A stretch of 40,160 bases of DNA. It comes from a virus (lineage: Duplodnaviria; Heunggongvirae; Uroviricota; Caudoviricetes). A program made the position numbers. Each line of letters opens with the position of its first letter. Position 1 is the first letter of the stretch. Below are positions 6,001 through 12,000 of this stretch, piece by piece. The stretch lies in IMG/VR virus record IMGVR_UViG_2548876867_000015, positions 1 to 40,160 of that record. One strand, given 5' to 3'.

Positions 6001-9000
6001 TATCAAGGGTTGCTTTAACCGTCTGTGACCCATAACCAACCAAGTCAGATCCAGTTGGCTTGGCTAGCTCGATCAATACGTCAGACGCAGACCCTGATGG
6101 AGGAAGCACAACAATAGGGTTACCATCGTTATCGAAAGCAGGCATCTTGTTTGCGCGGGAGGCAGCATCAGGAAGTTGCGGTATCTGCTCCTGAACGCGC
6201 AAAGTACACCCCAGGTTAGAACTGAGCTGTGTATCAACATAATTTTTAGTGGCTGCATCTTGGGGGGTTGAAGGATCGCGTAAGTTTCTGATGTAATTGT
6301 TAAGCGCATCATAATAATTTGCCACGAATGACGGCTTACGCAGCGCCAAGCTAAACCAACTTCGAACTTGCTGGATCAGCATCGTTAGCTTATCAAAAGC
6401 ATCCTCATGCACTTCTGCAAAGAACTTACCCTGATTACGCAAATCAGTTTCCTGCGTAACCGGGAGCTCTCGTGATATAGAAATCTGATAACCGCTAACC
6501 AATTCCTTCGACAGAATTATATTGCCACCATTGTATCCTCCAGCCCCAGTAACTATGTAATCAGTGTCAAGAATCAGCTCTGTGATGTTCTCGTTCAGGT
6601 CAACAACCTGCACTACTAAATCAGATTTCTGGAAAATTCTGAAGGTATAAGGGAATGTCGTTGTAACACCGTTACCGGTGTATTCGTTGTGGTCAACTTC
6701 GGTTGAGACCGTCATGTTAAATCTCCAGATAGTCGCAGCACCCGTTGCGCCGCATATCCGGTTATTCTATTACCTGAAAAACCACATATGGATATATAAT
6801 CCATGAATACGAACAGATATTACCTTTCAGGTGATTCGCAAAACGTGCTGGATAGCAAACAAATTATTTGATACTGTATATTTATACAGTTATTGCATGG
6901 AGAAGATAAGATGCAGCAGTATCACTATCCACTGGAAGACGGATTTACCGAAAGGATTCACACGCCGGGAGGCGTCAGGTCACTGGTGGAGGGATCGCAC
7001 TTGATGAAATTACTCCGGGATCTCGATAAGGATGGATTTAATGTCGATGGCCCACTTGCCGAACTGACTGCACTGATTAACTACGTCACCAGCTCACAGA
7101 TGTCTATGCGGGATCTGCAAACACATCTCGACTATTGTGCCGAACAATTACGAAAACAAACCAGATAAGGTTTGCAATTACCAAGTGGAGTGCTTATATT
7201 TACCTTTTCGGTAAATTTACATCGCACTCCTCTTGTGCCATAGTAATCGGGCACTGGCAAAATCCAGTGCCGGGATTGGCGTCCCGAGTTACTAAGTGGC
7301 GCATACCACGCCAGACGTGGTTTTTTTATGCGTTAAGCACAGCTATATCCGAATTATGGTGGGCTGGGCAGGGGTCCGAAAGGACGCCGGTACCACTTAG
7401 GCCGGTACGCCAACCTTGTCCAGTTCACCACCAGTAATTGGCGTTGCGGTGGTGATTAAAATTACTAAGTGGAGATAACCACCATGGCTAATGCTCAAAC
7501 TGCCATCTTCAAATTTGAATCTGTTAACCCTATCCGTTCCATCATTATCAATGGCCAACCATGGTTTGTAGCCCAAGACGTTTGTAGTGCGCTGCGTATC
7601 CAAAACGTCACCCAAGCACTTGAAAAACTGGATGATGATGAAAGGTCTATGTTCAACATAGGGCATGAACATCGTGCAATTTTTGACAGCCGAGTAAAAG
7701 AGATCAACATCATCTCCGAGTCAGGCCTCTACACACTGATCCTCCGCTGCCGCGACGCAGTGACACCAGGCACTATCCCCTACCGCTTTCGTAAATGGGT
7801 TACAGGTGAGGTTCTTCCTCAGATCCGCCGCACCGGAAGTTACATTAAAAACTCGCTCCCGCAGGAAGAACGCATAAAGATGGTTGCCGACCAGGTAGCC
7901 AACGCCACGGCGTCAGCAGTGATGCAGGCGATGAAGATAGAGAACAAAACCTACAGCGCCCCGCTGAAGCCAGGCTACCGCAGCCTGATTCACTCGCCGT
8001 CTGGTGTTCTCGGCCTGACGGAGAACTCACTGCTGATGAATCTGCTGAACCAGTTACAGGAAGACGGGCACGACGTATCGGGCGCGGCGGCGGAGCTGAC
8101 CACCATGTTCTGCTACATCGTCGGTGTGAGCAAATGCCTGCGTGATATCCAGACGCACGCGGAGTACATCAACGACAAAGCAGGGTTCTTCTGACGGGCG
8201 GTGGCACAGGGATGTGCTTCTGACATAATCATTTGCGGTGTGATGTAGATTCACGTAAGATTACCTTAAAGGTAAACCATGTGTTTACATGAGGAGGAGA
8301 TATGGGATTTTGGTTCGCTCGTACAAAAACGAGGGATAATGCACCCAGCCCTCAGGCAAAAAATGCAGAAGTTCCGGCGTCAGCGCAGGTTAACAAGCGT
8401 GGTGGAGTGTATATCTCATCACAGCAAATTTCTGAGCTTCCTGAGGTTAAGGAGATGCGTCGTCTCGCTGCTGCAATTGTTAAACAGGATCTTGCCACTG
8501 TAAGGAAATAGTGTTGTTAGCTCTTCTAATTATCCCCATTCTGGTTAGTGGTTATATTATGATAACCGCTAACCAGTATCATTACTTCCGTTTATACCGA
8601 CATGAAGGCCAGCTTCTTTATATGAAAGTAGCTGCATTAGGTACATATTGCCTTATTGCTTCAGTAATAATTGCAGCCGCTATAAAATATAAATGGCCTG
8701 ATTTTCACCTAGTCCATGATATGGTGGAAACTTTTAATGTAACGTCAAAACCAGAAACAGATAGAATTTACATGTGGCTGCTTCTTCTGTCAGCTACATC
8801 CATTTGCTTCTCTTTGTGTTATGTATCTGCTGTTTGGGTAAAAAATGTTCTTTTTGGTTTTTTTTATAAACGTGATATTTATGAAGGAATATTAGAGGCA
8901 ATGAAAGCCAGAGTATTGCGAAAAACATACTCACAAGGCTCTTTAGACTTGTTATTACTTGATGCAATCGAATCAGATCCAAAGAAACCAATGTTGATTA

Positions 9001-12000
9001 CTTTATCATCAAATAAAGTATACGTTGGAATAATAAATGGTTCTGGTGAACCAACAGAAAATCAGGGGCCACACCAGCATATATCTTTTGTTCCTTTAAT
9101 GTCAGGATACAGAAACAAAGAAAATTTATCAGTTACATTTACAAATGCTTATCCAGGTGAAATCCAAATTAAGCGCAGTGCTGCGATAAAAGGGATAAGT
9201 AAAAAGAAAGTTCAAGGTCTAGAAATTATGGTATCTATAGACGAAATAAGTCATATATCATGGTTTGACTTTGAAGTATATAAGGCAACAAATAATAAAG
9301 TAGAAACAAAGGGATATGTTGTCAATGTGACTAAAAATGGTCGCAACATATACCACAGAAGTGTCAGAAAATAATTTCACACATTATAGGTAGCCATATG
9401 GATAACACTATTATCGGCGCATTGATAGGTGCAGTTATTGCTATAGTTTCCACTTATATAAATGCAAGACAAGGATACAAAAACAGCATAAGATTAGAGC
9501 GCCAAAAAATATTAAGGGATAAACGCGAGCAATTATTTATAAATTGTATACTTGCTGAAAAAGTCATAGTTTCAAGCGAAATTACCATTCTCAATTTTGT
9601 AAAAAATGCCAGATACCACTCTGATAGTAAATTTGACGTATCAAGAGCGAATCCGTTGCAAACGATGGAAATGCTAATAAACATATACCTTCCTGAGTAT
9701 AAAAAAGACTTACAAGAACTCAATAATGCGTATCAAGAATTTCACAAATACTACTCTAAATATACAACCCCGGATAACTTCAAAGATATGCCTTATAGTG
9801 AGAAGGTTAAGTTTATTTCTGAAGCTAACTCTTATGCAAAAAAGATATATGGCAAACTTAATGATATTAAGGTTAAGATATCATCTAATTCAATAGTATG
9901 ACAGCGACACTGCTGCTGACGGCTCCCGCTGCGGCGGGCGTTCTGCGGATTCCCGCCCGGGCGGCGGTGGCATTCGTTAAAAACAAGGCCGCGAAAGCGG
10001 CCTGTGACATGTCACGATTTATAAAGATGACTGATATTTTACAACTCTGTTCATGGCATCTTTTTTCACCTAGCTGATATCAGTTCTTATTTTGGCTTCG
10101 TCATTACTGCTTATCATGCTATTAACTTTTTGCACTGACATGCCGTTTCTTTCAGCCATTGCACATACAGCAGCATCGTATGAAGAACTCGCTGCGATGG
10201 ATATCACCTTGTTACACTCAAACACAGCACCTTCAGCAATATCAGATGCCGATGATGCTGGCTTGGTATAAGTCTTGACGTAGTGATCAATACAACTATC
10301 CTTCGCCGTCTTGGCAAGGGAAAAATCTATTTTAACTTTGTCGCAATATGCATTATCAACACCGTCATAAACATCATAGGATGTCGAGCAAGCAGATATC
10401 AAAAATACCGATAACAGCAATAATTCCTTCATTGTTGTTCCTTATTGAGGAGCGACATCCTGAGGTCGCCACCAGTATGTCTGGTTAAACTCTTTCTTCG
10501 AACGTTGCTCCATTTTACGCAAATAGCCTGGTGAAAAATACTCCTGCATCTGGTTAAAGATCATGTGATCGAGAGCCGCCTTCAAGTACCAGAGATTCGC
10601 ACCAGGCATTAGACCCTTCCCCAGCTTAACCAGATCACCACCAGTCTGCTCATTCTTCCCTTCCACAGCATTTAGAGGTATGCCCTGAGCTATCTTCACT
10701 ACGTCATCAACCAGACCAGCTACCGGGCCAAGCATCGACGCCAGCGCGCCGCTCCCGTACCTAGTGTGGTCAGAGAAAAGAAAATCACCGTACAACCCAG
10801 CCCCACCACCTTTTAAAAATGCATTTATCCAGAATTTAACCATGTGGTCACCGGTCATTTCCTTTGGATTTCTCCCATTAATAAGATCAGTAATCTGCAT
10901 GGAAAGAGCACCAAGCATGGTTGTGCTTGCTAAAAACGTTGCTATATATGCTGCACGCCCACCAGCAGACGGCATACCCATAGCGCGTGACCAGTGACGC
11001 ATAACAACCGAGATAGGGAACGATTTAAACAGGAAAACACTTCTCGTTAATTCACCTTTCCATGTTCCACGCTGAAGACCAGACCCTACGAACATCTGTT
11101 CACGTGCGCCCGGTGTAATAACAGCCATATCAACTTCTTCAGTTACGGCACCGAGCAGTTTACGCATTGCCTCAAATTTCACGCGTTCAGGCTCACCAAG
11201 ATGTTTAACTGCTGAATCAGGGATACGCATAATGCTTTCCGGTGTCAGCATCGTATTATTACCGTTCCCCCAGTCCTCCTGTTGCGCCAACTTCCATACG
11301 CTCCAGTCTGTGTCAGTAATCCCTTTGCTTTTCAGGATACGAAAATCAGAGTCATCGAGGCTACGAAGGTCTGGTGTCCGTGACACTACTTCTCCCAGGC
11401 TTCCCATCATGGTTACGCCATAGGCGCGCTTGTGCGCATCTGACCATGCTGTAAGCCCACTGGCACGCATTACCGCCGTTGCCGCCCAACGAGACACTGA
11501 CGGCCCCATATTATCCATCGCCCAGCGGTTAACGCTGCCAAGTAGAGATTCCATCGCCAGACCAGCGCGGCGCGCCCGCGCAAGTTCTGTACGGTTCGTT
11601 GGGTCCATAGCTTCAAGCTGGTTGCGGAATAACTGGTTCATTGGAAGGTTGGTAACCTTCGCAGACAGATACATGGTTCCAAGATCAGAGAACGATGACA
11701 GCAACGCGGATCCGAGTCTGCTGGCAACCAGCCAGTTGCGGATATTGTCAGACCATCGCGCGATGTGCGGATTCGCTACAGGCTGTGTCTTTCCAGAAAT
11801 AAAGTTGTACAGATTCTCTGTGTTGTTCGCCAGCCGCTCGACTTTACCGGTTTTACTCGGGTTAGCTGTTGCCGTTTCTGCCTTAACCTGATCAAGAAGG
11901 GAGCGGAAAACATGATCGGGGTTTGGGCCATATGTTTCCACCAGTGCAATATCTTTACTGATACCTTCCAGGTGACCGACCATGATTTCCCATAGAGAGC

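Follow-up and report, generated by a model that had tools for sequence, protein, structure and literature searches.

Several phage membrane proteins act against other phages, among them lambda RexAB, a two-gene system co-transcribed with cI in lysogens, and T4 Imm and Sp, which are made in lytic growth. MscS channels are oligomeric rings in which an outward-facing N-terminus and three transmembrane (TM) helices precede a beta domain of Sm-like type in the cytoplasm. Phage P22 carries SieA, an inner-membrane superinfection-exclusion protein that consists of a single chain of 162-164 aa with the motif FxRYPxEAxxFNK (PMC10883804). Here we compare with these systems a cassette of three genes, which we call A, B and C, found in a 40,160-nucleotide stretch of Caudoviricetes DNA (IMG/VR virus record IMGVR_UViG_2548876867_000015, positions 1 to 40,160; the whole stretch is referred to below as the window). 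An earlier note, made from the sequence of the window, had described a self-contained AT-rich unit and proposed that it excludes incoming phages or triggers abortive infection; the observation of a three-gene membrane-protein cassette is confirmed, and the exclusion or abortive interpretation is partly supported.

The cassette resembles the sieA locus in lying in a temperate podovirus prophage, in encoding an inner-membrane protein with three predicted TM helices, and in an analogous placement between the ejection-protein genes and ant/tailspike. It differs in that neither sequence nor architecture agrees: there is no sequence similarity, B is a protein of 287 aa with a predicted Sm-like domain and an obligate small partner, A, and C has one TM helix. 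The cassette promoter moreover bears an immunity-type operator, which makes expression in the lysogen doubtful. The P22-like setting implied by the earlier note does not hold either, as DNA and repressor matches (phiV10, TL-2011b, phiv142-3, vB_EcoP_ZX5 and others) identify the window as an epsilon15/phiV10-like E. coli prophage (Uetakevirus).

Two conclusions about the cassette are well supported: its conserved functional unit is the pair A-B, with C as a separable extra, and this unit sits in a cargo slot controlled by the predicted immunity operator of the phage. The features of the slot, by position in the window, are:

8233-8261, plus strand: promoter-like element, with -35 TTGCGG (8233-8238), a 17-nt spacer and -10 TAAGAT (8256-8261)
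8261-8275, no strand assigned: immunity-type operator TTACC-TTAAA-GGTAA, one of nine exact copies in the window
8291-8299, plus strand: Shine-Dalgarno sequence of gene A, GAGGAGGAG, read from the sequence
8302-8511, plus strand: gene A, 69 aa, soluble (phrog_5739, 7e-52)
8511-9374, plus strand: gene B, 287 aa, GTG start, three TM helices (phrog_3630, 2e-106)
9398-9901, plus strand: gene C, 167 aa, one TM helix (phrog_36918, 1e-97)
9902-10016, plus strand: 3' remnant of a 53-aa secreted-peptide backbone gene ('transmembrane anchored protein'), the right border of the slot
9986-10003, minus strand: GC-rich hairpin AGGCCGCTTTCGCGGCCT with a T-run on the minus strand (terminator scan)

Each of the three proteins matches a PHROG family of unknown function across its full length, and the frames of A, B and C are therefore real conserved genes. 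The stop codon of A (TAG, 8509-8511) overlaps the GTG start of B in the sequence TAGTG, and the arrangement that had been read here previously, a 69-aa open reading frame (ORF) with a ribosome-binding site, coupled in this way to a 287-aa ORF and followed by one of 167 aa, stands on both the sequence and the PHROG matches. Hydropathy places TM segments at residues 1-19, 40-58 and 90-108 of B and at residues 5-23 of C, in agreement with the three helices and the one helix described earlier. Since TM1 and TM3 of B, like the single TM helix of C, are each followed by a K/R-rich stretch, the positive-inside rule puts the soluble domains of both proteins in the cytoplasm, and by the same rule B is predicted to span the inner membrane with its N-terminus out and its C-terminus in. 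GC content is 0.338 in B and 0.313 in C (0.329 for the two together, under the 5th percentile of 0.357 for windows of equal size) against 0.481 for the window, so that the two larger genes are indeed richer in AT than the phage, while A has an ordinary value of 0.476. RefSeq/PGAP starts B at an internal ATG (NZ_AP042480, 9369-10121), giving a protein of 250 aa; we rejected this call because it would cut off TM1, the most conserved segment of the family, and for the same reason regard the 287-aa GTG/TTG start as the better one. B is often annotated 37 residues too short.

B is almost always accompanied by A. In 64 of 68 IMG/VR loci the ORF immediately preceding B is of the A family, and two of the other four have no upstream DNA. 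The same order recurs in Providencia, Citrobacter, Cronobacter, Klebsiella, Salmonella, Yersinia and Arsenophonus, in three Alteromonadales, and in metagenome-assembled genomes of Brachymonas, Acidobacteria and Thermoanaerobaculia, and an overlap between the stop of A and the start of B is usual across these loci. Members of the A family have in common the motif V-x-V-(V)-G-R-G-(T)-V ... A-x-x-I-V; scans of A and of its family gave no Pfam domain, and no DNA-binding domain was found. Many A-family proteins (P0273, P0283, P0285, P0286 and others) go by the name 'multidrug ABC transporter ATPase' at NCBI, a label that looks like an annotation error given their length of about 70 aa.

The distribution of C is of another kind. 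Its family is tiny (13 clusters), it is present at only four of the 68 viral B loci and absent from 64, and a tblastn search of 50,697 phage records returned no match. Although C follows B in all eight complete E. coli genomes that have it, a homologue with 54% identity (L037 2-1072) is directly preceded not by B but by a single-pass membrane protein of the DUF4760 type (Pfam 1.7e-33), and C-like proteins may pair with different membrane partners. The model of C, a TM helix continuing into a four-helix bundle, is a generic fold. The suggestion that B and C form a conserved membrane two-component pair is not supported on these counts, the partner of B being A.

A word-indexed search returned only close relatives of B, whereas a profile search of 1.84 billion representatives returned 2359 proteins at E <= 1e-3, of which 939 also passed E <= 1e-10; almost all are full length, at 240-340 aa. 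Pfam, NCBIfam and PADLOC scans of A, B and C gave nothing over noise, with no match in PADLOC-DB 2.0.0 at E <= 1, and this agrees with the absence of Walker, nuclease, HTH and peptidase motifs remarked on earlier; no homology of B or C to a virion or housekeeping family was found. Among 76 diverse B members no Pfam or PADLOC family was detected, the single PADLOC match being at chance level. The B-family profile matched no PDB sequence, a Foldseek search of the B model against BFVD gave no match at E <= 0.001, and the accession numbers of A and B had no match in the papers searched or in the DefensePredictor supplements. A-B makes up a large and conserved family of two-gene units that none of Pfam, NCBIfam and PADLOC contains and that, as far as these comparisons can tell, matches no characterised family.

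Conservation in B peaks in TM1 (PILVSGY), in the loop between TM1 and TM2 (GQLLY) and in loops of a predicted barrel (KVYVG, EPxE, MSGYRDKDT), with L11, G14, G33, Q34, L36 and Y37 near-invariant among the 76 diverse sequences. With TM1 and the loop behind it so well conserved, the membrane portion appears to be functional and not a mere anchor. In the model of B, a helical linker with two helices (127-139 and 145-154) leads to a cytoplasmic Sm/LSm-like beta-barrel at about residues 145-225, which has the N-terminal helix and the strongly bent five-stranded beta-sheet of the Sm/LSm fold and can be superposed on Sm/Hfq. The soluble domain of B is on this basis predicted to be Sm/LSm-like. It differs from Sm, LSm and Hfq proteins, which form hexa- or heptameric rings and bind RNA, in being fused to three TM helices and in its family-specific conserved loops EPxE and MSGYRDKDT, and neither B nor any of the 76 homologues matched the LSM or Hfq families of Pfam.

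The slot itself is best seen at its right border. By alignment and translation, 9902-10016 is the 3' two-thirds of a 53-aa gene of which STEC346 and phiv142-3 have complete copies and which the cargo has cut short here; PGAP calls a pseudogene at this remnant. The hairpin within it is annotated 'terminator' in phiV10 and, because its T-run lies on the minus strand, terminates the leftward late operon, possibly acting also as a weak bidirectional stop for the cassette. It is followed at 10004-10015 by the perfect palindrome GTGACATGTCAC, which may be a recombination or module junction; on the right side of the slot, the alignment of related prophages breaks off exactly at this point. The earlier note had taken GC-rich hairpins and this palindrome as the end of the cassette, a reading that we rejected because the stretch aligns with the intact 53-aa backbone gene; what ends there is a truncated backbone gene with a shared terminator. 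A 117-bp right-end piece that includes the hairpin is common to 489 of 5426 complete E. coli genomes, and in a megablast search of phage records this piece was all that matched. A-B is present in 28 of the 489 carriers and C in eight, and other Uetakeviruses carry other small ORFs at this place, so that the locus is a variable cargo slot; the proposal that the genes were acquired is upheld in the form of horizontally acquired cargo.

At the left border, the final T of the cassette -10 hexamer is the first base of the operator, and the promoter is weak when compared with consensus (3/6 at -35, 4/6 at -10). The motif TTACC-N5-GGTAA occurs in nine exact copies in the window against 0.05 expected, a number reached in none of 100 shuffles, and in 12 copies against 0.54 expected when one mismatch is allowed. 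These lie at 6820, 7200, 8261, 26511, 29468/29486, 32014, 32076, 34359, 34407, 35119 and 35181. Four operators share one geometry, with -35 TTGnnn, 17 nt, and a -10 hexamer that ends in the operator's first base, and each of the four is oriented with its downstream genes: 7200 on the plus strand (isrK/C4/ant), 8261 on the plus strand (A-B-C), 35181 on the plus strand (early operon) and 32014 on the minus strand. No promoter of this geometry is obvious at 26511, a site close to a tRNA gene, or at 29468/29486, where the flanking genes are that of a phrog_536 regulator and those for packaging. The remaining elements of the circuit that concern us are:

7172-7214, plus strand: sister promoter and operator of the isrK/C4/ant operon, TTGCAA-17-TATATT plus TTACCTTTTCGGTAA, directly upstream
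7469-8194, plus strand: ant, a BRO-N antirepressor gene
34095-34322, minus strand: cro-like gene, divergent from the repressor gene
34477-35061, plus strand: prophage repressor gene, 194 aa, with Pfam HTH_3 and PHROG matches

Operator-like sites stand between the cro-like and repressor genes at 34359, 34390 (partial) and 34407, and the sites at 35119 and 35181 flank a consensus TTGACA early promoter at 35153. The 194-aa repressor is 98.5% identical to that of vB_EcoP_ZX5, overexpression of which abolishes lytic transcription (PMC9782041). From its copy number and placement TTACC-N5-GGTAA is the predicted immunity operator of this phage, and the 194-aa repressor is its probable ligand. An alternative in which the palindrome at 8261 acts as an RNA hairpin was rejected, since shuffled sequences fold as well as the 5' region does (z -0.16); with nine copies at promoters in the genome, we prefer to read it as an operator.

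In related prophages the operator arms are conserved and the spacer is variable, and the TTGnnn-17-TAnnAT layout is retained in loci L001, L002 and L013, also where the sequence further upstream is not the same. Since phiv142-3 keeps the same promoter and operator with different cargo, both belong to the backbone slot and not to the cargo; a Providencia relative has an operator variant of its own, TTAACC-N5-GGTTAA, ahead of its A-B pair. The promoter and operator noticed earlier are thus both real, as the copy number and the shared geometry indicate, but they are parts of the immunity circuit and backbone rather than the cargo's own, and the unit is not self-contained. Because the operator overlaps the promoter at -10/+1, the cargo is probably silent in the lysogen and expressed once the phage infects or is induced. 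No plus-strand terminator is predicted between the end of ant (8194) and A, nor did the prediction scan give an internal plus-strand promoter, and read-through from the 7172-7214 promoter would enter the cassette too.

Outside Uetakevirus, A-B is found in several accessory positions of mobile elements. In the Klebsiella P2-like phage ST15-OXA48phi14.1 the gpA-gpQ hotspot holds A, B, a 69-aa ORF and bSEFIR (L028 4786-7495; bSEFIR of 477 aa, PADLOC 7e-103), and in Salmonella SEN4/5 the pair lies at the equivalent position. Anti-phage systems are documented cargo of this hotspot (PMC9122126); A-B shares it but is none of the systems validated there. The pair further lies between int and attP in phiES15, adjoins the integrase in a Citrobacter prophage, and stands at a prophage end, after the tail-fibre invertase, in Klebsiella. 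Taken together, the P2 hotspot, the integrase-side and prophage-end loci, the 68 IMG/VR loci that carry B, the sporadic distribution and the low GC suggest a context of phage competition, and a defence or exclusion role of A-B is plausible from such sequence evidence.

The mechanism that we propose starts from the slot, which would comprise a backbone promoter with its -10 fused to the immunity operator, then variable cargo, the shared right border and the terminator. Its cargo would here be two units: A-B, a presumably ancient and widespread pair that is apparently translationally coupled, and C, a rare single-pass membrane protein that may be an independent or auxiliary membrane cargo gene. 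Through its Sm-like domain B would assemble into a membrane-anchored ring whose effect in the inner membrane would be exclusion or abortive infection, brought about by forming a pore or by barring the entry of DNA, and A, a small cytoplasmic protein, would serve as a stoichiometric regulator or sensor of B. Expression of the module would require the absence of the repressor, as in newly infected or induced cells, and we propose a lytic-phase role because its promoter is under the immunity operator: it would protect the replicating phage from competitors, as T4 Imm/Sp do, rather than the resting lysogen. The likeness to Imm/Sp lies in this putative timing; neither they nor RexAB show homology to A-B (no PADLOC match), and gene order and sizes differ. 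We hold this reading, with B as a membrane-anchored Sm-like ring, A as its regulator and lytic-phase phage competition as its setting, tentatively, as one that may be right but falls short of being probable. A more specific version, in which A-B is a new two-gene membrane class whose Sm ring and small partner would sense or capture nucleic acid or nucleotides at the membrane and so open or block a conduit, with phage exclusion or abortive infection as the outcome, again from a lytic-phase slot into which temperate phages would plug this and other cargo, is unlikely as it stands, if worth stating.

Several points weigh against the proposal. The AF2 model of B is of moderate confidence (pLDDT 71.5, with values of 40-59 in parts of the C-terminal third), and the assembly of a ring and the formation of a pore are purely conjectural. 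A-B is homologous to no validated family of defence, exclusion or toxin proteins. That the repressor binds at 8261 and that the weak promoter is active are predictions. The proposed timing applies to the Uetakevirus context alone; other phages supply the pair with its own upstream region, and no common autoregulatory palindrome precedes it in the six other contexts compared. In Alteromonadaceae, Brachymonas, Acidobacteria and Thermoanaerobaculia, moreover, A-B lies among housekeeping genes, its chromosomal neighbours including an ECF sigma factor, Yip1, T2SS-B, HD-GYP, a histidine kinase, TadA, RNase P and LolA, and two Alteromonadaceae loci have neighbours in common. These neighbourhoods suggest a cell-intrinsic function outside Enterobacterales, and for this reason defence is not the sole possible role of A-B.

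The same observations speak for an explanation in which A-B is a general membrane-homeostasis module with a cell-intrinsic role, for instance a regulated channel or an Sm ring that is tethered to the membrane and binds RNA or nucleotides; phages would carry it as a fitness factor or lytic helper and not for defence. The size of the family, with its 2359 representatives in several phyla, would fit such a role, as would the partial synteny in Alteromonadaceae, and the layout of B, N-out with three TM helices followed by a cytoplasmic Sm-like domain, recalls MscS-type channels. Neither B nor the 76 homologues matched MS_channel of Pfam, however, and the two linker helices of the B model separate TM3 from the barrel, whereas in MscS the pore-lining TM3 is joined directly to the beta domain. 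In Enterobacterales the pair sits in prophage accessory spots that include a validated defence hotspot, and its occurrence in 28 of 5426 E. coli genomes is sporadic, neither of which is easily reconciled with homeostasis. We consider this explanation unlikely on balance, but the most substantial of the alternatives.

Closer to the original proposal, B and C might act together in the membrane of the resting lysogen as a SieA-like superinfection-exclusion or abortive system expressed during lysogeny. In this Uetakevirus the cassette lies between the internal-virion genes (with a T7_gp14-like gene at 17237-17779) and ant/tailspike, a position beside internal-virion or ejection genes and ant that is analogous to that of sieA in P22 (PMC10883804); in P22-like prophages sieA stands between homologues of P22 genes 16 and 9. 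Both B and C are membrane proteins, the constant order of B and C in the eight complete E. coli genomes would suit joint action, and leaky expression from a repressed promoter is conceivable. Against this, the immunity operator overlaps -10/+1 of the only plus-strand promoter candidates, the upstream promoter of ant being arranged alike, and the rarity of C at viral A-B loci and the unrelated partner of its homologue do not favour a B-C system. The conserved cytoplasmic motif of SieA, FxRYPxEAxxFNK, and even its core RYPxEA, had no match in a regular-expression search of the six frames of the window, and neither B nor C has the size and architecture of SieA (a single protein of 162-200 aa with 3-4 TM helices that suffices on its own). 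The prophage also already has an O-antigen acyltransferase of the Acyl_transf_3 type, a kind of gene that we take to be associated with receptor modification. A lysogen-expressed system of this sort therefore seems improbable to us.

Least probable of all, and quite improbable, is that A-B is a toxin-antitoxin or addiction pair that stabilises a mobile element, with B as a membrane toxin, A as a labile antitoxin and any defence as a by-product: its layout is that of type II systems (a small upstream gene that overlaps the larger downstream gene and is strictly co-inherited with it, at 64/68 loci) and it is carried on mobile elements, but A has no recognisable DNA-binding or antitoxin domain, no common autoregulatory palindrome precedes A in different contexts, stable chromosomal copies occur in non-mobile neighbourhoods, and a toxin under a lytic phage promoter would be unfit for prophage maintenance.

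Two further identifications were tried. The cassette is not one of the '3HP' or '2TM+1TM+TIR' systems of Rousset, whose published protein sequences are unrelated. Against the P2/P4 hotspot systems of that set, RT-nitrilase+1TM included, no real sequence similarity emerged: in BLASTP of C with the 1TM proteins either nothing matched or the match was confined to 46 residues across the TM segment (E 0.005, pairwise). From 4HB sensor and DUF4760-type proteins C differs in that its bundle is predicted to be cytoplasmic and that it lacks a Pfam match, a second TM helix and an output domain.

Should phage competition prove to be the role of A-B, a defence or exclusion system would be gained whose effector, a membrane-anchored Sm-like domain, is unlike known ones. 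Many comparable candidates exist, and from its sequence A-B is a good candidate for a role in phage-versus-phage competition. The family is present in thousands of sequence clusters from several phyla without annotation, or is mis-annotated, as in the shortened B and the transporter label of A. The variable Uetakevirus locus behind a promoter fused to the immunity operator implies that this cargo is expressed in the lytic phase; this runs counter to the usual view of prophage 'morons' as genes that work in the lysogen, and bears on how such genes are screened.

The surroundings of the cassette add some observations of their own. To its left lie the lysis genes, the Acyl_transf_3 gene, the tailspike gene and then the isrK/C4-antisense/ant unit. 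The Acyl_transf_3 protein (368 aa, 3445-4551, minus strand) is encoded between the lysis genes and the tailspike gene in the lowest-GC stretch of the window (about 0.29) and is probably the product of an O-antigen-modifying conversion gene, of the kind reported for phiV10. Between the 7172-7214 promoter and ant, Rfam places isrK (67 bits, 7251-7327, plus strand) and a C4 antisense RNA (66 bits, 7352-7435, plus strand), which form a P1-type antisense layer of ant control within a Uetakevirus. Upstream of that promoter a 91-aa ORF (6893-7168, plus strand; phrog_450) is homologous to the C-terminal part of Ant, residues 158-239 of which (of 241 aa) also match phrog_450; this ORF is preceded by the one-mismatch operator at 6820 and may encode a free-standing Ant C-domain.

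To the right of the cassette, a small lipoprotein gene is followed by the large internal-virion genes, which themselves follow the T7_gp14-like gene. The former encodes a putative lipoprotein of 120 aa (MKELLLLSVFLISAC..., phrog_8691; 10070-10432, minus strand), lies distally in the late operon immediately beyond the right border of the slot, and also varies among related prophages. Further on, a tRNA gene lies inside the prophage at 26848-26921 on the plus strand (Rfam, 73 bits).

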